Source: Fibrobacteria bacterium (lineage in GTDB: Bacteria > Fibrobacterota > Fibrobacteria > UBA11236). Taken from it: a DNA stretch of 64,000 bases. Under the pieces are notes generated by a model. That model had not been told where the DNA came from. It searched no databases and saw only the letters and a list, made by a program, of their open reading frames with translations. This document shows, piece after piece, positions 20,112 through 30,621 of the stretch (position 1 is its first letter; each line of letters begins with the position of its first letter). Where the stretch lies: assembly GCA_041746255.1 (NCBI GenBank), contig JBGTHM010000005.1:79025-143024 (forward strand), in the 5' to 3' direction. The position numbers were made by a program, and so were the translations under genes.

Positions 20112-22661
20112 ATGCACATGCCGAATACGCCGGAGTCCGCTTTTACCGACTTACCGATGCAGCTGGATCTAGGGCGTGATCAGGAATTGCACGAAGCCAT
20201 AATCCCATTAAAGATTTTGGAAACCCTGCTTCCACTGGGATTATGGGCATGCGACCCTGAGGGGCGCATAGCCTACCTCAGCCCTGCCCTGCATTCGCTT
20301 GTGAATTTCACTCCGCTCGAGAATCTCGGATTCGAGGATTTGGAAGACCCCGAACCGGGTTCATCATACACCGCTCCGCAGGCCTGGTTGGCGGCCTTGA
20401 AAGAAGGACGGTGCGAAGATTACACCTTCACTCTTCGCGATTCCAAGGGAGGGAGGCGTTCGATACTAAGGAGGGGGATTCCCGTTTTCGCGTCGGATTC
20501 CGCCTTAAAAGGCTGGTTCGGCTTTCACCTGGACCATCCCAACCTCCCACTCACTATTGAAAATCGGGATGATGTGGAAGATGCTTCCGAAGCGGACGAT
20601 TCCGTCATCCCGGATTCCAAAAGCCTCAAGGGCATAGCACAAGAGCTTAAAATCACGGACGAAACGCTTGCGCTTATTTTCAACAGCGTTTCCGATCTGA
20701 TAATCCTGCTTACCGTTGAGGATGAAGGCGAGGACGCCGACTACCGCTTTCTCAAGTTCAACCAACCGCTCATTCAATTCGGTTATCCTGTAAAAGAAGA
20801 GGTGATAGGCAAAAGCCTGAGCGAGGTGGTATCCGAACCCTATCTCAGTTTTTTCCGGGCCAAATGCGGTGAGGTGCGTAAAAAAAAGGAGGCGATGGCT
20901 TTCGAATACCAGACCAACAAGGACGGCGGTGTACGCACGGTGGAGGCGAAGTATACGCCCCTCATCGACAGCTCCGGTCGCTGCACCCACATACTCGTCG
21001 TATCGCGTGATATCCAGGAACGGAAACAAAACGAAGCGAAAATCCGCATTCTCAATGAGGAGTTGGGACGCAGAGTGCGCGAATTGCAAACGATATTCGA
21101 TACGGCTCCCGTAGGTTTGATTCTCATCAAAGAACCGGATAGCCGCTTCGTGAAACTCAATCCCGTCATGGCCCGGATGCTGGAGCTCGACGACGACGAA
21201 TTTTTCGAGGCCTACTCAGCGACCGCCTCGGGACCGCTGGGATCCTATCGGATTTGGCGCGGAGACGTAGAATTGCGACCCGAGGAAACTCCGATGGGAC
21301 GCTGCCTCGCGACCGGCCTTCCGGTACGCGAGGAGGAATTGGAAATCCGCTTCCCGCATGGCCGAAATCGCTTTCTGGTCGGTAGCGCGGCGCCGGTTTT
21401 CGACGATAAAGGAAAAGTACGTGGCGCCATCGGCGCATTTGTGGATATTTCCGAGAAAAAGAAGCAGGAGGAATCGCTTAAGAAAAACGAAGCCAAATTG
21501 TTGCAATCCCGGAAGATGGAGGCCATTGGCCAACTGGCGGGTGGCGTCGCGCACGACTTCAACAATCTGTTGACCGCCATCAACGGTTACGCCGATTTAC
21601 TCCTCCATGAATCCCCATTGGATGACAATCGGAAAACTTACGTGACGGAAATCAAAAAATCGGGAGAGCGGGCCGCGGCTCTGACCCACCAATTGCTTGC
21701 CTACAGCCGCCAGCAAATCCTGTCTCCCCGGAAAATGGATCTCAACGCGGTGGTGGTTGACATGGTCAACTTGCTGAGCCGTCTCATCGGCAAAGAAATC
21801 GATTTGGTAACGCTGACACCGGAGAGACCGACCTTCGTCAACGCAGACCCCGGGCAAATCGAACAGGTGGTACTGAACCTGGCCGTCAACGCGCGCGATG
21901 CCATGCCCGAGGGTGGGGAACTCCTGATAAAAGTTTCCTGCGAAACCCGCGTCATACCGGATAAGCCGCCGAGTGAAGACGCCTTTCAACATTACGGTGT
22001 ACTATGGGTTTCCGACACGGGCCATGGGATGGACGAATCCGTGAAGGATCGCCTTTTCGAACCATTTTTCACTACCAAGGAATTGGGCAAGGGAACCGGA
22101 TTGGGGCTTTCGGTGGTGGAAGGCATCGTAAAGCAAAGCGGAGGCTTTATTGAATTACAAAGCGAGCCCGGTCAAGGGACGCTTTTCAAGGTCTATTTGC
22201 CTGCCCTGGAGGCCAAAAGCGAAAAAAAGACCCGCTCAGAGGGCGAAAGAATCACCGAGAGGCTGCCGATAACCGGGCAAGGCACCCTGCTTTTGGTGGA
22301 AGACGAGGACATGGTCCGGAAATTCGTGGCCAATGTCCTTACGGTCGGAGGCTACCAGGTGCTTACCGCCGCCAACGGCGCTGAAGCCCTCCTTGTCAGT
22401 GAACGGCACCCGGGACCCATAGACGTACTGATAAGCGACGTTGTCATGCCCCAGATGAACGGCCCTAAACTCGCCGAACGACTGGCCGAGCATCGGGCGG
22501 GGTTACGTATTCTCTTCATGTCCGGTTATACCGATGATTCCATCGTGAAGCACGGCTTCCTCCAGGCCGGTTGCCATTTCCTGCAAAAGCCTTTTGCACC
22601 CAAGGTGATCCTTAGGAAGCTGCAAGAGATTTTCAATTCCGAAACCGTTTCCTCCCAATAA
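20112..22661 (+). CDS. Multi-PAS hybrid histidine kinase
   Basis: Three PAS-like regions; AHDFNNLL; GTGLGL; REC (VEDE, ISDVVMP, KPF). Confidence 0.95.
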   Translation: MHMPNTPESAFTDLPMQLDLGRDQELHEAIIPLKILETLLPLGLWACDPEGRIAYLSPALHSLVNFTPLENLGFEDLEDPEPGSSYTAPQAWLAALKEGRCEDYTFTLRDSKGGRRSILRRGIPVFASDSALKGWFGFHLDHPNLPLTIENRDDVEDASEADDSVIPDSKSLKGIAQELKITDETLALIFNSVSDLIILLTVEDEGEDADYRFLKFNQPLIQFGYPVKEEVIGKSLSEVVSEPYLSFFRAKCGEVRKKKEAMAFEYQTNKDGGVRTVEAKYTPLIDSSGRCTHILVVSRDIQERKQNEAKIRILNEELGRRVRELQTIFDTAPVGLILIKEPDSRFVKLNPVMARMLELDDDEFFEAYSATASGPLGSYRIWRGDVELRPEETPMGRCLATGLPVREEELEIRFPHGRNRFLVGSAAPVFDDKGKVRGAIGAFVDISEKKKQEESLKKNEAKLLQSRKMEAIGQLAGGVAHDFNNLLTAINGYADLLLHESPLDDNRKTYVTEIKKSGERAAALTHQLLAYSRQQILSPRKMDLNAVVVDMVNLLSRLIGKEIDLVTLTPERPTFVNADPGQIEQVVLNLAVNARDAMPEGGELLIKVSCETRVIPDKPPSEDAFQHYGVLWVSDTGHGMDESVKDRLFEPFFTTKELGKGTGLGLSVVEGIVKQSGGFIELQSEPGQGTLFKVYLPALEAKSEKKTRSEGERITERLPITGQGTLLLVEDEDMVRKFVANVLTVGGYQVLTAANGAEALLVSERHPGPIDVLISDVVMPQMNGPKLAERLAEHRAGLRILFMSGYTDDSIVKHGFLQAGCHFLQKPFAPKVILRKLQEIFNSETVSSQ

Positions 22662-23062: not shown

Positions 23063-24259
23063 ATGCTCGCATTCCCCGATGATTTTGGCCGATATGGCCC
23101 CTATGGCGGTAAATACGCCCCCGAGATCTTAATGCCCGCTCTGGAAGAGTTAGAAGCCCGTTATTCGACCCTGAAAGACAACCCGGATTTTCAAAAAGAG
23201 CTTGCCGGCCATCTTAAAGACTTTGTGGGACGGCCTTCCCCGCTTTATTTCGCCGAACGTCTTACCGCGCATTGCGGAGGCGCCCGTATCTACCTGAAAC
23301 GGGAAGATTTGAACCATACCGGCGCGCATAAAATCAATAATTCGTTGGCCCAGGTATTGATTGCCCGGGAAATGGGGAAAAAACGGATTATCGCCGAAAC
23401 CGGCGCCGGTCAGCATGGCGTGGCCACCGCCACCGCTGCCGCCAAATTCGACATGGAGTGCGTAGTCTATATGGGCCGGGTCGACATGGAACGGCAAGCG
23501 CCCAATGTCGACCGGATGCGCCTTTTAGGCACCCGGGTCGAACCCGTTGATTCGGGTAGCCGCACCCTGAAAGACGCAATTAATGAGGCCATTCGGGATT
23601 GGGTGACGAATATCGAAACCACCCACTACGTTTTCGGCTCTGTACTGGGGCCCCACCCCTATCCCATGATTGTCCGAGACTTTCAAAAAGTGATCGGCGA
23701 GGAATGTGAAGTACAAATCCTGGAAAAAGAGGGCCGCCTTCCCGACTACTTACTGGCTTGCGTAGGCGGAGGCAGCAATGCCATGGGATTGTTTTACAAC
23801 TTTTTAGACAAACCTTCGGTTAAAATGCGAGGCATCGAGGCCGGCGGTGAAGGCATTGCCGGCGGGAAACACGCGGCCCGATTTTCCGGAGGAAGCCTGG
23901 GAATTCTGCATGGAACCAAAAGCTATGTCCTGCAAACTCCCCAAGGTCAAATCGCCGAAACCCATTCCATTTCGGCGGGCCTCGACTATCCCTCCATCGG
24001 ACCTGAGCACGCCTACTACCACGACAGCGGGCGTATCGAATACACCTTTTGCGAGGACCAAGCAGCTTTAAACGCCTTTCAGACCCTTTGCCGGTTGGAA
24101 GGAATCATTCCGGCATTGGAGAGCTCGCATGCGGTGGCGGAAGCGCTCAAGCTCGCCCCCACCCTATCTCCCGATAAAATCATCGTCGTCAACCTATCCG
24201 GTCGCGGCGACAAGGATTTGCAGTCGGTACTGCAACTCCTGCTTCCCAAAGGCAAATAA
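23063..24259 (+). CDS. trpB: Tryptophan synthase beta chain
   Basis: [39 protein letters not shown]. Confidence 0.99.
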
Positions 24260-24260
24260 G

Positions 24261-25067
24261 GTGGAAAAAATCTCATCCACCTTTGCGAAGCTTGCCGAAA
24301 AGGGCCACCGTGCCTTTATCCCCTATCTTGCCGCAGGCGTTCCCGGAGTGGAGGAAACCGTGGAATTGGTATTGGGGCTGGAAGCCTGGGGAGCCGACAT
24401 CATCGAATTGGGCTACCCCTTTTCGGACCCCATGGCCGATGGAGTCGTCAATCAGGCCGCCGCCAACCTGGCGCTGAAAAAAGGCGTCGATGTCGAGGTG
24501 TATTTCACCATAATCGAAAAAATCAGGAAACATTCCCGGATACCCCTGGTTGTTTTCTCCTACCTGAATCCCATTCATAAAATCGGATTCGAGACCTTTA
24601 TCACCCGAGCAGCGTCTCTCGATGTCGATGGCCTGTTATTGGTGGACATGCCGGTGGAAGAATCGGCGGAAGTGCACTCGTTGTGCGCGCGCATGGGACT
24701 CGTCAACATCTATTTGCTCGCGCCCACCACCACTCCCGAGCGGCGCGAACGCGTGCTTAAGAATTCCGGCGGCTTCGTATATTATGTCTCGCGCACGGGC
24801 ATAACCGGGGAGCAACAGGATTTCCAGGAATCTTTCGCGGAAAAATTAGGCGTTGTCAAAAAAGCATCGCAATTGCCGATTGCCGTAGGGTTCGGAATTT
24901 CCACGCCGGAACAGGTACGCACCGTATGCGGGCTGGCCGACGGCGTCGTGGTCGGCAGCGCCTTGGTACGCCGCACCATGGAAGACAAGCCTTTCAAAAC
25001 CTTGATGCGTGAAATGGAAGCTTTCGCAAAACCGCTAATCGCACCTACGAAAGAATCATGGAATTAG
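24261..25067 (+). CDS. trpA: Tryptophan synthase alpha chain
   Basis: IELGYPFSDPMADG, VSRTGITG, VGFGIS, VVGSA; GTG start 1 nt after the trpB stop. Confidence 0.98.
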   Translation: MEKISSTFAKLAEKGHRAFIPYLAAGVPGVEETVELVLGLEAWGADIIELGYPFSDPMADGVVNQAAANLALKKGVDVEVYFTIIEKIRKHSRIPLVVFSYLNPIHKIGFETFITRAASLDVDGLLLVDMPVEESAEVHSLCARMGLVNIYLLAPTTTPERRERVLKNSGGFVYYVSRTGITGEQQDFQESFAEKLGVVKKASQLPIAVGFGISTPEQVRTVCGLADGVVVGSALVRRTMEDKPFKTLMREMEAFAKPLIAPTKESWN

Positions 25068-25318
25068 AAAACTGGCGCGGCCAAATCGATGAATTGAATC
25101 TCAAGTTGCTCAAAGCCTTGAACGACCGCGCCCGTTGCGCTTTGGAAATCGCGAAGGTGAAAAAACGGGAAATGCTGCCCGTATACGATCCCTCCCGCGA
25201 AAAAAAGATTTTTGAAAATATCCTCGCGCATAATACCGGCCCGCTTTCCAATGAATCCGTGCAAAGAATTTTCGCCTGCATCATTGAGGAACATCGGCGT
25301 ATGCAAGAATCCGCATGA
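25058..25318 (+). CDS. Chorismate mutase (AroQ type)
   Basis: LENWRGQIDE...LNDRA...K...VYDPSRE. Confidence 0.92.
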   Translation: MELENWRGQIDELNLKLLKALNDRARCALEIAKVKKREMLPVYDPSREKKIFENILAHNTGPLSNESVQRIFACIIEEHRRMQESA

Positions 25319-26484
25319 GCGTAAATCCACCCTTTGAAAACATAGCCCTGGTGGGACTCGGTCTGCTCGGTGGTTCGCTTGCCGAGGCCGTGCGGCGCCA
25401 ATGGCCCGACGTAAAAATTTCCGGAATATCCTCTTCGGCCGCTTTGGCCCGCGCCCAAAAAGCCGGCCTCATCGACTTTGCCGCCGAATACAGCCAAATC
25501 AACGAGGTTTGCGAAAAAGCTGATTTGATATTGCTCTGCACGCCTATCCATAGCATTTTGCAACAGTTGAAAACTTGGAAAAAAAGCCCTCCGAAATTCG
25601 GCCCAAAGTGTGTCGTATCCGACGTGGGTAGCACCAAGGTCGCCATTTGTGCCGCGGGCCGCGAGGCATTTCCCGCTTCGGCGCAAGGTCCCTGTTTCAT
25701 TGGCTCGCACCCCATGGCAGGCAGCGAGAGAACCGGCTTGGAAGCCCGCGACCCGCATTTGTTTGAGAATGCCTCCTGGGTGATCTGTCCGGACGCGCAA
25801 ACCCCCGCCGACACGGTCAACCGGTATCAGAACTTTCTGGAAGGGCTCGGCGCTCGCACCACTTTGTTGGATCCCGATTTGCATGATGCCGTCGCCGCCC
25901 ATGTCTCCCATCTCCCCCAATTGATATCCACCGCCTTGGCCAGCTTCGTGAGCGGACGCGAAGGCGTGGTGGAGCATTGTCTTAAAATAGCGGGCGGGGG
26001 ATTTCGTGACATGACCCGCATCGCGGCTTCTTCCTATTCCATTTGGGAACCCATCCTGCGCACCAACCGCAAATCGGTGTCAGAGTCACTGGAAGCCTAT
26101 ATTACGCACCTAAGCGCTCTGGGCAACGCATTGCACCCGCCCGCGAAATCCCATGACAATGAAGAAAAAACGACGGTGGCCATCCCGGATCCGGCGGAAT
26201 TTTTCCAGCGGGGCGGCGAATTGCGGAAAAACCTATCGACTTTGAAAAAAGGCTTCAGCACGCCGTTGGCCGAGATTTTGGTGGATTTACGCGATCAACC
26301 GGGTATGTTGCTTTCCGCGCTGACTCCTTTGGCCGCCAAATCGATCAATGTACTCGACCTCGAAATCCTTAAAGTGCGCGAAGGCGAGGACGGAAGCCTG
26401 ATGATGGCCTTCAAAAAAACCTCCGAAGCCGAAGCGGCGGTGCAACTACTCATAGAGAACGGCTTCAAGGCGCGCCTGCGTTGA
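25315..26484 (+). CDS. tyrA: Prephenate dehydrogenase with ACT domain
   Basis: GLGLLGGS, DVGSTK, HPMAGSE, SHLPQ, GFRDMTRIA; C-terminal DQPGML ACT. Confidence 0.93.
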   Translation: MSVNPPFENIALVGLGLLGGSLAEAVRRQWPDVKISGISSSAALARAQKAGLIDFAAEYSQINEVCEKADLILLCTPIHSILQQLKTWKKSPPKFGPKCVVSDVGSTKVAICAAGREAFPASAQGPCFIGSHPMAGSERTGLEARDPHLFENASWVICPDAQTPADTVNRYQNFLEGLGARTTLLDPDLHDAVAAHVSHLPQLISTALASFVSGREGVVEHCLKIAGGGFRDMTRIAASSYSIWEPILRTNRKSVSESLEAYITHLSALGNALHPPAKSHDNEEKTTVAIPDPAEFFQRGGELRKNLSTLKKGFSTPLAEILVDLRDQPGMLLSALTPLAAKSINVLDLEILKVREGEDGSLMMAFKKTSEAEAAVQLLIENGFKARLR

Positions 26485-27944
26485 GCAAAGCCAGTCCGCA
26501 ACAGAATATGGAGACGACTCTGGCCATACCGGAAACCTTGGAACTCAAACGCTGTAAGAAACTGCGGGGGACGCTCATTCTGTCTGGTGACCCTGGAATC
26601 GCCTCCCATGCCCTTTTATTGGCGGCATTGGCGCCGGGCGTAACGCGCATCGAAAACCTACCGGACGAAGAGGGTACCCAGGCGCTTTTGGCGCACCTCG
26701 AAACCATGGGTTGTTCGGTGGATTGGGAAGACGGGCATTTGCTGCTTACGGGCGGAACGCAGCGGCTGCAGGACTGGAGCGAACCCTTTTCACCCCGGCA
26801 TGAAACGGATTTATTGGGTCTGCTCGGAATTACCGCGGGACTCGGGCTGGCCGGGCCGGTACGGGTGGACTTGCATCGCATTCCCGGGGAGGTCGTGGAC
26901 AATAGCCTGCGCTTGCTCCAGCTTGGCTTCATCCCAATCGACGAGGGCGAGCAAATCGAGTCTTCCCAACCCTTCCGCATTCTGGAAGCCGCGAGCTTGC
27001 GGGAAAACCTCGCCGCTCAATTGCCGGGCCCGGTGCAGGCCGAGCGATTGCACTTGGAAGAACATACGGCCAAAACCATTCTGCTTTACCACCAGGTAGC
27101 CGCGGGCAAAGGTCTGCATTTGCAATTGCGGAAAAGCGGGATCGATCATCTTGAGAATCTGCTTTTGCAATTTCAGGCGCCCCTCGTCGTTCAAAAACAT
27201 GAGGCCCGTGAAATGGACGAGCTTGCGCGCCGCATCGCACGGCAAATGCGTGGGTCCGATAAACCCGAAAACCCCTATCAAATACGCTTGGCTTCGCAGG
27301 CAGATTCTCAACCCGCCTTACAACCGCCTTTTTTGCGGCTTCCCGGCGATGTTACCCTGGGATCCCTCTATCTCCTGGCGGCCACCTTGGTAAACGGATC
27401 CGATCTGGTCCTGGATAACTTCGGCCTCAATTCCGGACGCATGGGGTTTCTCCAAGCGCTGAAACGCATGGGTGCCGATATCGAGATAGTCTCCCGTCGC
27501 GAGAAATTCGGTGAAACCTTTGGGCAAGTCCGGGTTCGCACCGCCGAGCTCATGGGAAAGCGCTTCGGCAGGGAAAATCTCGAAGGCATGCGCGATGAGA
27601 TACCCCTCCTCATTATGGCCGCGGCTTTCGCGGAAGGTGAAACCATACTCCGCGACATCGGATTTATGCGAACCTACGGCAACGACCTCTTGAAATCCAT
27701 GATTAATTCCCTCAAATCGGTAGGCGTGGAAATCGGGGAAGTCGAAGACGGGCTGGTGGTCCGGGGCAAAACCGAGTACGACGGAGGAACCTTCCAGGCA
27801 TTTGGGCATCCGGTGCTGGGCGCGGCTTATTACCTTTTAGGCATGAAATCGCATGGCATCACGGAAGTACGGGGCATTGAAGGAATAAAGGCCAGATTCC
27901 CCGGATTTCTGGAAGAATTGGGCCGGCTCACGGAGCCGACGTGA
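26481..27944 (+). CDS. EPSP synthase (AroA) homologue with degenerate active site
   Basis: AroA fold landmarks are present (TRIENL, PGD, LKRMGADI, DEIP...AFAEGET, DGLVVRG, FPGF). The KS, NSGT, SAQ, KESDR and DHR motifs are replaced. Confidence 0.85.
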   Translation: MSKASPQQNMETTLAIPETLELKRCKKLRGTLILSGDPGIASHALLLAALAPGVTRIENLPDEEGTQALLAHLETMGCSVDWEDGHLLLTGGTQRLQDWSEPFSPRHETDLLGLLGITAGLGLAGPVRVDLHRIPGEVVDNSLRLLQLGFIPIDEGEQIESSQPFRILEAASLRENLAAQLPGPVQAERLHLEEHTAKTILLYHQVAAGKGLHLQLRKSGIDHLENLLLQFQAPLVVQKHEAREMDELARRIARQMRGSDKPENPYQIRLASQADSQPALQPPFLRLPGDVTLGSLYLLAATLVNGSDLVLDNFGLNSGRMGFLQALKRMGADIEIVSRREKFGETFGQVRVRTAELMGKRFGRENLEGMRDEIPLLIMAAAFAEGETILRDIGFMRTYGNDLLKSMINSLKSVGVEIGEVEDGLVVRGKTEYDGGTFQAFGHPVLGAAYYLLGMKSHGITEVRGIEGIKARFPGFLEELGRLTEPT

Positions 27945-28939
27945 AAAAGGGCCCCAGCCGTCTCTCCCATAGTACCCGAAAGAAGAAAAATCCTAATCAG
28001 GGCCGCTCCGCACTTGAGCTGGGTCCATTGGCGTTGGACCCTCATGTTACGCCTCCGCAACGCGACATTCACACCATCGGCGTGGTGGCCTTTAACGGCG
28101 CCGGCTCTTCGGTGCTTGATGGATTGCATAAATGGTCCAAGCAAAATCCGGAAACCGCGCTGGTACTCAATCGCCGCCTGGCATCCCAGGGCGGTAAACT
28201 TTTTCCGGTGCGCTCCGACGCCTTTTTGAGATCGCGTACCGACCTCCTGCTATCGCTGGGCGGGGACGGCACCTTTCTTTCGGCCGCGCGCCTGGTCCGG
28301 GGAACCGGCGTGCCCATTTTGGGAGTGAACCTGGGTAAAGTCGGCTTTTTGGCCGACGTCCCGCCGGAAAACCTGGCCCGCATCCTCGACGAAATATTAC
28401 GGCGCGAATACAGCTTGCGACACCGCATGATGTTGCAAGTGGAGGTTTACGAGGGCGACAAGAAAGTGAACGAGGATTTGGCCCTGAACGACGTGGCCTT
28501 CGCGGGCCGCATGGGCTTCCAGATGGTAAACCTGCGTGTATCGGCCCATGGCCAATTTCTTACCGAATATTACGTGGACGGCCTCTTGGTATCCACTCCC
28601 ACGGGTTCTACGGCCTACGCTTTATCCGCGGGAGGCCCCATCATCCATCCATCGGTACACTCCATCCTGTTAACGCCGCTCAGCCCCTCCTCCCTTTCGG
28701 TTCGGCCCCTGGTCCTGCCGGATTACCATGTCATCACCGTGGAAGCGGATATGGATAGGAAACAGGAAGTGAATCTGGTCATCGACGGGCGCACCAATAT
28801 CCCCCTCAAAAAGAATCAAACGGTGGTACTGCGAAAAAGTGAAGTGGGCACTTGCATCTTGCGGCCCAAGTCTTCTTCGTATTTCGAATCGCTCCGCGGC
28901 AAGCTGGGATGGAGCGGAAGCGCCTTGCGCAAAGGATAA
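27941..28939 (+). CDS. nadK: NAD kinase
   Basis: GGDGTFL, GVNLGKVGFL, LND, STPTGSTAYALSAGGP. Confidence 0.97.
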   Translation: MKKGPSRLSHSTRKKKNPNQGRSALELGPLALDPHVTPPQRDIHTIGVVAFNGAGSSVLDGLHKWSKQNPETALVLNRRLASQGGKLFPVRSDAFLRSRTDLLLSLGGDGTFLSAARLVRGTGVPILGVNLGKVGFLADVPPENLARILDEILRREYSLRHRMMLQVEVYEGDKKVNEDLALNDVAFAGRMGFQMVNLRVSAHGQFLTEYYVDGLLVSTPTGSTAYALSAGGPIIHPSVHSILLTPLSPSSLSVRPLVLPDYHVITVEADMDRKQEVNLVIDGRTNIPLKKNQTVVLRKSEVGTCILRPKSSSYFESLRGKLGWSGSALRKG

Positions 28940-28944
28940 CGCCC

Positions 28945-30621
28945 ATGTTGCGTGAACTTAAAATCGAAAATCTGGTCATCATTGACTCCGCCGCGCTCAA
29001 GTGGAAAGACGGTTTCACAGCGATAACCGGAGAAACCGGCGCGGGAAAGTCCGTGCTCATGAACGCGCTGAAATTCATTCTCGGCGGCAAGGTCAAACCG
29101 GATATTATCCGCCGGGGCGAAGACAAACTGCGCGTGGAGGCGGTATTCGACATGCCCGCATCCCGCGCCTTCCTCGAAATATTGACTTCCCTCGAATTGG
29201 ATGCCGAAGTCGATGAAATCCTTCTGCAGCGTGAATTGACCGCTGCGGGCCGCAATCGCTGCCGCGTGAATGGAACCGTGGTCACGCTCTCGGACCTTGA
29301 GTTGCTGGGATCGCGACTGGTTGATTTGCATGGCCAGCATCAACAACAATCCCTCTTCGACTCGCGTACGCATCTGGAATTTCTCGACTCCTTCGCCAAG
29401 CTCGAAGGCGAGCGCGAAGTCTACTCCCGGCTCTTCCGGGAGTGGAAGGAAATGGCTCGCCGTATCGAGGAAAGACGCGAGGAATCGCGACGCATCCAGG
29501 AACAATTCGATTTTCTGCAGTTCCAACACAAGGAATTGGAGAAAGCCCGGCTCACCCCCGATATGGAAGAAAAGGCCGAAGAGGAATTGCGGGTACAATC
29601 GGGACTGGAAAAAATCAGCGGGGTGATCCAGGGCGCGTTGTCCATGCTGGACGGCGAAGAGGGCGACATGCGTGCCCGCCTTTCGCGCCTGCAAAAGGAA
29701 CTTTCCGTCCTGGACAAATTCATGACCCAGCATCCTTTTCAGACCTATGGCGAGAAACTGGAAACCGCCCGGCAAACCCTTTTGGACCTGGCGGCCGATT
29801 TACGGAGTTACGCCCTTCCCCAATCGGTGGATTCGGCGCGCATCGATCAACTCAACACCCGGCTGGCACTGCTTCAGAAATTGAAGGCCAAATACCATTC
29901 CGACCTGGCCGGGCTCATCGAGCTACGCGATCGTCGCGAACGTGAGTTACGGGACTTCACCAACTCACAAGCCGATATCGAGATGCTGGAAGCGGAGGCG
30001 CTTGAAAAGGCGGAACGCCTCAAATCTCTCGCCCAGAACCTGAGCAAGGAGCGCTTGCGTGCCAGCGCCGCCTTCGACAGCGAGGTAAACTCGCGCCTTG
30101 CCAATTTGGGCATGGAGGGCAGCGAATTCACCACCCAAATCCTTCCTGTGGGTGAAGACGAAACCGGGTTCTCCTCAACGGGAAAAGACAAGCTGGAATT
30201 CTTCCTGAAAGCCAATGCGGGCGAAGCCGCCAAACCCTTACGGCAAATCGCTTCCGGCGGAGAAATCTCCCGCATCATGCTGGCCATCAAAACGGCTTTG
30301 GCGGCCGGAGACCCGCGACCCTTACTGGTTTTCGACGAATTGGACACCGGTATCGGCGGAGTTACGGCCAACCGCGTGGGGCAGACCTTGCGGGAATTGG
30401 CGAAACATCACCAGGTATTCGTGATCACCCACCTGCATCAAGTGGCGGCCCAAGCCCAGCAGCAGCAGCGCGTGGTCAAGGAAATGCAGGGCGGCCGGAC
30501 CGTGACGCGGGTGTTGCCTCTGAACGAAAAGGACCGCATAGGAGAGCTGGCGCGGATGATGGGCGACGAATCTTCGCGCGCCACCCGTCGCCATGCGGAA
30601 GAGATTCTTGCGCAGGAATGA
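28945..30621 (+). CDS. recN: DNA repair protein RecN
   Basis: TGETGAGKS, HGQH, ASGGEISRIML, FDELDTG, ITHLHQVA. Confidence 0.97.
   Translation: MLRELKIENLVIIDSAALKWKDGFTAITGETGAGKSVLMNALKFILGGKVKPDIIRRGEDKLRVEAVFDMPASRAFLEILTSLELDAEVDEILLQRELTAAGRNRCRVNGTVVTLSDLELLGSRLVDLHGQHQQQSLFDSRTHLEFLDSFAKLEGEREVYSRLFREWKEMARRIEERREESRRIQEQFDFLQFQHKELEKARLTPDMEEKAEEELRVQSGLEKISGVIQGALSMLDGEEGDMRARLSRLQKELSVLDKFMTQHPFQTYGEKLETARQTLLDLAADLRSYALPQSVDSARIDQLNTRLALLQKLKAKYHSDLAGLIELRDRRERELRDFTNSQADIEMLEAEALEKAERLKSLAQNLSKERLRASAAFDSEVNSRLANLGMEGSEFTTQILPVGEDETGFSSTGKDKLEFFLKANAGEAAKPLRQIASGGEISRIMLAIKTALAAGDPRPLLVFDELDTGIGGVTANRVGQTLRELAKHHQVFVITHLHQVAAQAQQQQRVVKEMQGGRTVTRVLPLNEKDRIGELARMMGDESSRATRRHAEEILAQE

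Follow-up and report, generated by a model that had tools for sequence, protein, structure and literature searches.

HisZ, a catalytically dead paralogue of histidyl-tRNA synthetase (HisRS), regulates the ATP-phosphoribosyltransferase HisG. For EPSPS (AroA), the synthase that makes 5-enolpyruvylshikimate-3-phosphate (EPSP), Song, Bonner & Jensen 2005 (PMC1173090) describe the gene order tyrA>aroF, in which aroF encodes EPSPS, as widespread and TyrA-AroF fusions as independent events; they also describe how in Pseudomonas syringae the fused AroF domain was truncated and a free-standing aroF was acquired, and speculate that the remnant could become a regulatory domain. In the preprint by Leino et al. 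(10.1101/2020.05.27.118265), the enzymes of V. cholerae and C. burnetii are the references for class I and class II EPSPS, respectively. Here we analysed a stretch of 64,000 nucleotides from a Fibrobacteria bacterium (assembly GCA_041746255.1, contig JBGTHM010000005.1, positions 79,025 to 143,024 of the forward strand), hereafter the window, to which all positions below refer unless a contig is named. Directly after tyrA, an intact open reading frame (ORF) of 487 amino acids at 26481..27944 (+) encodes an EPSPS-fold protein that we call psAroA. We estimate a probability of about 80% that psAroA is a catalytically dead descendant of a class-II-type EPSPS that has been kept for a non-catalytic role, EPSP synthesis being carried out by a class-I aroA.

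Membership of psAroA in the EPSPS fold family is clear from its match to Pfam EPSP_synthase PF00275 (112.4 bits, gathering cut-off 22.8, E = 2.8e-32). The score on the NCBIfam aroA equivalog model TIGR01356 was 127.3 bits, below the cut-off of 287.25, with the match confined to the N-terminal ~75 and the C-terminal ~200 residues, so psAroA does not qualify as an AroA equivalog; nor does it qualify as MurA, with 37.4 bits on TIGR01072 (cut-off 392.7) and 41.7 bits on PRK09369 (cut-off 297). Its closest relatives in the PDB are class II-type EPSPSs, headed by that of Coxiella burnetii (3roi/3tr1, E = 6.4e-36) and followed by those of Bacillus halodurans, Acinetobacter and CP4, with E. coli-type enzymes at just ~1e-13.

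We compared the motifs of psAroA with those of active enzymes using a HMMER alignment to Coxiella AroA and alignments to canonical class II AroA, and counted the retention of motif columns over 50 members of the psAroA family. GDKSISHR is replaced by GDPGIASH (residues 36-43; 26586..26609, +), with Lys changed to Pro, Ser to Gly and Arg to His, and 0-4% of the family retains the canonical residue at the K, S and R positions. NSGTxxR has become RHETDLL (residues 106-112; 26796..26816, +; N, G and R kept in 4-10%), the RRPM region reads IPGEVV, and EHTAKT stands for SAQVKS (residues 194-199; 27060..27077, +; S and Q kept in 8%). IDHLE (residues 221-225) takes the place of RDHTE, YGNDL (residues 399-403; 27675..27689, +) that of KESDR, with K, E and R kept in 4%, 8% and 14%, and HPV (residues 443-445; 27807..27815, +) that of DHR, with D, H and R kept in 12%, 2% and 2%. 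The canonical polar sites of psAroA are thus occupied by P38, G39, H43, H107, L112, G136, E137, E194, T196, Y399, G400, L403, H443, P444 and V445. In the E. coli and CP4 crystal structures, the residues lost are those that bind shikimate-3-phosphate, phosphoenolpyruvate and glyphosate. DEIP (residues 372-375; 27594..27605, +), whose Asp column is invariant in canonical AroA, is retained. An earlier sequence-only reading of the window had reported a full-length ORF with these motif changes and a retained DEIP, and each of them is present in the translation and in the alignments to class II AroA.

The loss is selective, as that reading had also proposed. Comparing 68 canonical AroAs with the 50 family members, we found 47 columns conserved in at least 90% of the canonical enzymes, 21 of which are kept in at most 16% of the psAroA family; in 18 of the 21 the canonical residue is polar or charged. 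Among the lost positions are those of GDKSxxxR (K, S and R), NSGTxxR (N, G and R), RRP (the RP), SAQ (S and Q), KESDR (K, E and R) and DHR (D, H and R). A further 16 of the 47 columns are kept in at least 70% of the family, and in 14 of them the canonical residue is Gly, Ala, Leu, Met or Pro. Ligand-binding positions have therefore been lost and structural positions kept, and loss of EPSPS activity is what this pattern of residues suggests.

The sequence-only reading had expected the true aroA elsewhere in the genome, and we found it on another contig of the same assembly, G000 in our genome set (G000:C99:15759-16994), with 434 bits on TIGR01356, above the cut-off. Its product carries PGSKSISNR, GNAGTAMR, RMRERP, SSQF, KETDR and DDHR, and in the PDB it matched the V. 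cholerae enzyme (3nvs) at E = 2.1e-147, E. coli at ~1e-143 and CP4 at ~1e-25. Because the best PDB relatives of the two proteins are the V. cholerae and C. burnetii references, respectively, we conclude that the working aroA is of class-I type and that the operon copy derives from class II. A third PF00275 locus of this genome, on contig C39 (250 bits on PF00275, 73 on the aroA model), is probably murA. Of the 201 Fibrobacterota genomes sampled across the phylum, 196 have a canonical aroA at E<=1e-60, and in 191 it scored above the cut-off.

We also considered whether psAroA fills a missing shikimate step. [quoted passage not shown] The shikimate kinase match (G000:C81:12125-12607) lies within a 553-aa open frame, a possible aroK fusion, for example with aroB.

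Next, we estimated the selection acting on psAroA. Between G000 and its congener G152, dN/dS (the ratio of nonsynonymous to synonymous substitutions per site) was 0.129 for psAroA (dN 0.158, dS 1.226) and ~0.107 for canonical aroA (dN 0.162, dS 1.521), values that are rough since dS of 1.2-1.5 is near saturation. Five more psAroA pairs from another genus gave 0.19-0.25. Frames of 440-640 aa are intact in nearly all listed genomes, covering 20 families, and psAroA is retained even in a reduced genome of 1.6 Mb (G042). psAroA is under purifying selection across the phylum and is not decaying, and the neutral decay of orthologues that the sequence-only reading had named as evidence against itself was not what we found. 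That psAroA is a functionless remnant kept by chance or operon polarity is, in our judgement, extremely improbable: the loss of all catalytic motifs, its apparent absence from family f11 and an in-frame TGA in one orthologue would fit decay, but the intact frames, dN/dS of 0.13-0.25, the retention in the reduced genome and motifs conserved within the family, among them an arginine (Arg251) present in 50/50 aligned members, speak against it. The orthologue in question (G174:C191:11138-11944) has a single TGA within the match; the gene may recently have become a pseudogene, the base may have been misread in sequencing, or the codon may be recoded. Clear descent from an enzyme family despite loss of the binding residues, together with purifying selection in the presence of an active paralogue, marks psAroA as a very probable pseudoenzyme.

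The family is confined to Fibrobacterota within the collections that we searched. A word-indexed protein search with psAroA returned 180 proteins at E<=1e-5, ~70 of them at E<1e-40, the latter coming, where named, from metagenome-assembled genomes (MAGs) of Fibrobacteria or Fibrobacterota. An exhaustive search of representatives returned 92 clusters at E<=1e-30. Judged by simple patterns, all three catalytic motifs are missing from many of the best 150 representatives listed. The ESM Atlas search returned EPSPS clusters only. In a scan of the genome collection at E<=1e-45, all matches came from MAGs titled Fibrobacteria, Fibrobacterota, Fibrobacteres or Fibrobacterales, bar one untitled 'bacterium' and four third-party annotation (TPA) records, and a motif check of 15 loci found all three catalytic motifs in 9/9 from other phyla and none in 6/6 of the Fibrobacterota-type set. 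The four TPA metagenome-assembled records (L058, L072, L075 and L076) carry the Fibrobacterota-type gene (77% identity for L058) under the titles 'uncultured Bifidobacteriales' or 'Bifidobacterium', which look like taxonomic mislabels.

Within the order of the window's genome, a copy scoring below the cut-off (85-127 bits on the aroA model) was detected in 38 of 39 genomes, the match in G194 being partial; G210, the sole genome without it, is 74% complete. G194 is an unpublished genome and counts as one unit at both order and phylum level. Canonical aroA scored above the cut-off in 33 of the 39, and in three of the other six (G171, G188 and G213) it is split across contig ends. Inspection of the loci confirmed motif-less orthologues in 22 genomes, which represent 13 families of the phylum and include the complete Fibrobacter-like genomes G086 and G064; the Fibrobacter-like family, which is of the same class and to which G086 belongs, includes cultured species.

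A maximum-likelihood tree of 62 rows, computed in 'quick' mode, placed the 26 psAroA-family rows in one clade with a support of 99 (Shimodaira-Hasegawa-like approximate likelihood ratio test, SH-aLRT), nested among class-II-type canonical sequences, with deeper nodes at 82-92. Four further sequences (P0134, P0138, P0155 and P0244) lack the three catalytic motifs by pattern, yet fall outside this clade, P0244 being the sister of a canonical AroA of alphaproteobacterial type. They may represent separate cases of AroA degeneration or variants of the motifs, and were excluded from the family counts.

The EPSPS fold consists of repeated beta-alpha-beta-alpha-beta-beta units. We built an AlphaFold2 model of psAroA from a 62-sequence family alignment, and it shows the complete two-domain EPSPS fold at high confidence (mean predicted local distance difference test, pLDDT, 92.8; predicted template-modelling score, pTM, 0.92). 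In Foldseek the model aligned full-length to EPSPS, with class II enzymes as the best matches and a probability of 1.00 to both EPSPS and MurA structures. Template-modelling (TM) scores, normalised to target length, were 0.86-0.89 against the liganded, closed structures of Coxiella, CP4 and S. pneumoniae and 0.55-0.76 against open, unliganded ones, which makes the model closed-like.

The secondary structure of the model follows the repeated pattern of the fold with one addition, a helix at residues 247-256 which, in the element list of the model, separates the two final strands of the third unit, just before the chain crosses over to the other lobe. This helix is part of an inserted segment, EAREMDELARRIARQMRG (residues 241-258; 27201..27254, +), where 91% of the 68 canonical AroAs have a gap; it is the charged helical insertion that the sequence-only reading had pointed out. 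Its consensus in the family is D-E-L-x-R-R-x-A-R, with E247 in 88% of the aligned members and R251 in all 50, and the inserted helix with Arg251 is the clearest hallmark of the family. The conserved lobe of the family additionally carries a near-invariant hairpin (417-429; GVEIGExEDGLVIRG).

We then compared variability within the family. Mean entropy was 3.06 bits in the lost columns against 2.56 in ordinary ones, no other class of columns being as variable, and the top residue of a lost column mostly accounts for 20-48% of the family. Since the lost columns are more variable than ordinary ones, a rebuilt pocket at the old site is disfavoured, which weakens the option, raised by the sequence-only reading, of a new ligand in the former active site. 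Residues 36-283 of the family average 2.91 bits and the remainder 2.17, compared with 1.95 and 1.92 in the canonical enzymes. In one genus (P0008-P0036 and similar; row P0017) the orthologues reach 550-630 aa, the extra length being an acidic, low-complexity insertion of 60-150 residues rich in Ala, Pro, Glu and Asp, between residues ~150 and ~190 of the less conserved lobe.

These data bear on the idea that psAroA is a neofunctionalised enzyme, senses a new small-molecule ligand or represents a new and highly divergent class of EPSPS. The full-length fold with its high-confidence, closed-like model, the conservation of some charged residues and the strong purifying selection would all suit such a protein. 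Against these stand the variability of the 21 lost columns, which is the opposite of what a rebuilt pocket would give, the lack of conserved replacements for the phosphate- and carboxylate-binding residues, the tolerance of long acidic insertions in the lobe of residues 36-283, and the coexistence of canonical aroA in nearly all sampled genomes. We therefore regard this possibility as quite improbable.

Several observations nevertheless weigh against a dead protein kept for a non-catalytic role. The DEIP Asp is present in psAroA and in 46% of the family, and charged residues shared with class II AroA are still conserved (D37, D290, R320, E373, R391, R397 and D402), so that psAroA may, judging by these residues, have changed its chemistry instead. 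The dN/dS values are rough, as said above. Finally, in the five genomes checked of family f11 we found no third PF00275 match, so psAroA is dispensable in some lineages. We still consider psAroA to be a catalytically dead EPSPS descendant with a retained role, and because fold and selection have been kept while residues invariant in real AroAs have been lost, it most likely acts by binding and not by catalysis.

To place psAroA in its context, we examined the surrounding genes, which run on the + strand in the order trpB, trpA, chorismate mutase, tyrA, psAroA, nadK and recN. The trpB-like and trpA-like ORFs at the head of the string (23063..25067) recur in the same order at related loci. They are followed by an AroQ-type chorismate mutase (25058..25318; PF01817, E = 3.9e-23) and by tyrA (25315..26484; PF02153, PF20463 and PF01842), encoding prephenate dehydrogenase with a C-terminal ACT domain. 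Downstream of psAroA lie nadK, encoding NAD kinase (27941..28939; PF20143 and PF01513), and a recN-like ORF (28852..30621) similar to ORFs found 3' of nadK at related loci; its true start is probably ~30 codons further in, as relatives align from query residue 32. The names trpB, trpA and recN are tentative readings of the translations. Directly upstream of trpB, an 849-aa ORF (20112-22661, +) has a translation that reads as a PAS/histidine-kinase/receiver hybrid sensor. Among sequencing runs, one DNA run, which may be the source of the window, was listed as containing this stretch, and no RNA run was.

The overlaps of psAroA with both neighbours, which the sequence-only reading had noted, are of 4 nt each and depend on the starts used. 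A TTG start at 26481 makes psAroA overlap the tyrA stop, but ATG 26508 (Met10), which is the start point of the closest orthologue, is equally plausible, and this overlap is therefore conditional on the choice of start. On the other side, the TGA stop overlaps nadK if the latter starts at GTG.

To see which neighbours are constant, we inspected 22 genomes hand-picked for completeness, family spread or TyrA absence. tyrA lies directly upstream of psAroA in 15 of them and chorismate mutase in two (G004 and G007); in four of the remaining five the nearest recognised upstream gene is trpA, ~0.7-1.0 kb away, and in the fifth (G073) the contig begins just before psAroA. On the downstream side, the adjacent gene is nadK in all but two of the 22 (20 genomes), usually followed by recN, the exceptions being G042 and G136.

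TyrA itself is not universal in the phylum: a search with PF02153 at E<=1e-10 did not find it in 19 of the 201 Fibrobacterota genomes, including whole genera with genomes 90-100% complete. These genomes, among them G004, G007, G013, G016, G019, G043, G073, G083, G099, G103, G115, G121, G151, G167 and G169, have canonical aroA, and their lineages may make tyrosine by another route or not at all. In seven of them (G004, G007, G099, G103, G043, G073 and G167; completeness 90-100%) a motif-less psAroA was verified. TyrA is therefore no obligate partner of psAroA. Of the repurposed, non-catalytic protein put forward by the sequence-only reading, the core thus stands, so far as selection and selective residue loss can indicate, while an obligate TyrA partner does not.

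This result counts against psAroA being a TyrA-specific regulatory or structural subunit, the stand-alone counterpart of the AroA domain in TyrA-AroA fusions. The position after tyrA in most of the inspected genomes, the 4-nt overlap of stop and start that the TTG start gives in the window, and the best NCBIfam match of psAroA, the bifunctional TyrA/EPSPS model PRK14806, would all agree with such a subunit, as would the existence of TyrA-AroF fusions and the suggestion (PMC1173090) that the truncated P. syringae AroF could be a regulatory domain. Set against the seven genomes without a detected TyrA and the lack of any in-frame TyrA-psAroA fusion in four long open frames checked, these points leave a TyrA-specific subunit unlikely in our view. 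The four frames, of 762-943 aa in G182, G164, G172 and G185, had been candidates for fusions and were rejected as upstream read-through in a frame that differs from that of tyrA. A complex prediction for TyrA and psAroA gave a score of 0.00, and as controls were not run it carries no weight either way.

The alternative that NAD kinase or the nadK-recN unit is what psAroA acts on or with, for instance as a modulator that ties NADP(H) supply to aromatic synthesis, draws on the most constant neighbour: the genomes with nadK directly after psAroA include all seven verified TyrA-less ones, and stop and start often overlap or abut. The order may, however, be mere inheritance. Each of the f11 genomes checked has two PF00275 matches, which we read as canonical aroA (E ~1e-115 on the aroA model) and a weaker copy that is probably murA, and in G006 (L159) and G012 (L162) tyrA directly adjoins nadK, leaving the psAroA slot empty. 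The 14-kb loci of G042 and G136 yielded no nadK, and we know of no accessory subunit of bacterial NadK. Taken together, action on NAD kinase is possible but doubtful. The tyrA/psAroA/nadK-recN string is thus old, and lineages may lack one or the other of tyrA and psAroA; f11 may have lost psAroA or may never have had it. The canonical AroAs of G006 and G012 are ~30-33% identical to the class-I-type AroA of G000.

Returning to a dead EPSPS descendant that works by binding, we propose the following scenario. psAroA would occupy the aroA slot of an old tyrA>aroA operon arrangement, EPSP synthesis having been taken over by the unlinked class-I-type aroA. Relieved of this task, the protein would have kept the whole two-domain fold and given up the invariant Lys, Arg, Ser, Gln, Glu and His positions of real AroAs, purifying selection then maintaining it throughout Fibrobacterota. 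Binding could take place through the conserved lobe, made up of the N-terminal strand and residues ~284-487 with the hairpin, and through the Arg-bearing inserted helix, and psAroA could serve as a regulatory or scaffolding subunit, in kind like HisZ. Candidate partners are, in this order, NadK as the most constant neighbour, chorismate mutase or TyrA, and canonical AroA. Its most specific form, that psAroA is a HisZ-like regulatory subunit which binds NAD kinase or the chorismate-mutase/TyrA branch point through the C-terminal lobe and the Arg helix, and so couples aromatic synthesis to NADP(H) supply, is put forward very tentatively. If it were true, the EPSPS fold would for the first time be seen in a regulatory role, and one that extends across a whole bacterial phylum.

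Some consequences do not depend on the partner. Family members are named '3-phosphoshikimate 1-carboxyvinyltransferase', '5-enolpyruvylshikimate-3-phosphate synthase' or 'aroA' in several sources, and metabolic reconstructions that count psAroA as EPSPS would mislabel the protein. Predictions of glyphosate sensitivity for Fibrobacterota would be affected as well, because the working enzyme is the class-I-type copy. A dead EPSPS under selection throughout a phylum would offer a clear-cut example from nature in which a paralogue of a different class displaced an enzyme and the copy already in place was put to a new use. As the family occurs in the Fibrobacter-like family represented by G086, which includes cultured species, its role may be directly testable.

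Compared with described systems, psAroA is nearest to class II EPSPS. Its fold matches the Coxiella (3roi/3slh) and CP4 (2gg4/2gg6) enzymes (Foldseek E = 6e-36, TM 0.86-0.88), its sequence is closest to this class and nested within it in the tree, and its place after tyrA fits the widespread tyrA>aroF linkage (PMC1173090). Unlike class II enzymes, it has GDKS..R, NSGT..R, RRP, SAQ, KESDR and DHR all replaced (127 versus 287 bits on the equivalog model), possesses the extra helix with its conserved Arg and coexists with a real aroA. It also resembles the 'unclassified' EPSPSs of the class I-IV scheme, in that it carries PF00275 and would fail the class markers; that scheme (10.1101/2020.05.27.118265) takes every PF00275 protein as an active EPSPS, whereas psAroA is very probably inactive. 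With P. syringae TyrA-AroF it shares the history (PMC1173090) of a resident tyrA-linked EPSPS that lost its function while a free-standing aroA exists elsewhere. The P. syringae case, limited to one species, is a ~200-residue deletion in an AroF that forms part of a TyrA fusion, in contrast with psAroA, which is full-length, free-standing, phylum-wide and under purifying selection, also where TyrA was not found.

In the literature searched, with subscription journals and supplements outside its scope, we found no description of an EPSPS pseudoenzyme, and psAroA is thus a pseudoenzyme in a fold family where we found none described. By analogy, the closest parallel in kind would be HisZ. HisZ, whose partner and ligand are known, still has its histidine site, whereas the old site of psAroA is degenerate; what the two would nonetheless share is that a dead paralogue of a housekeeping enzyme is encoded alongside a biosynthetic pathway and has been conserved as a non-catalytic protein.

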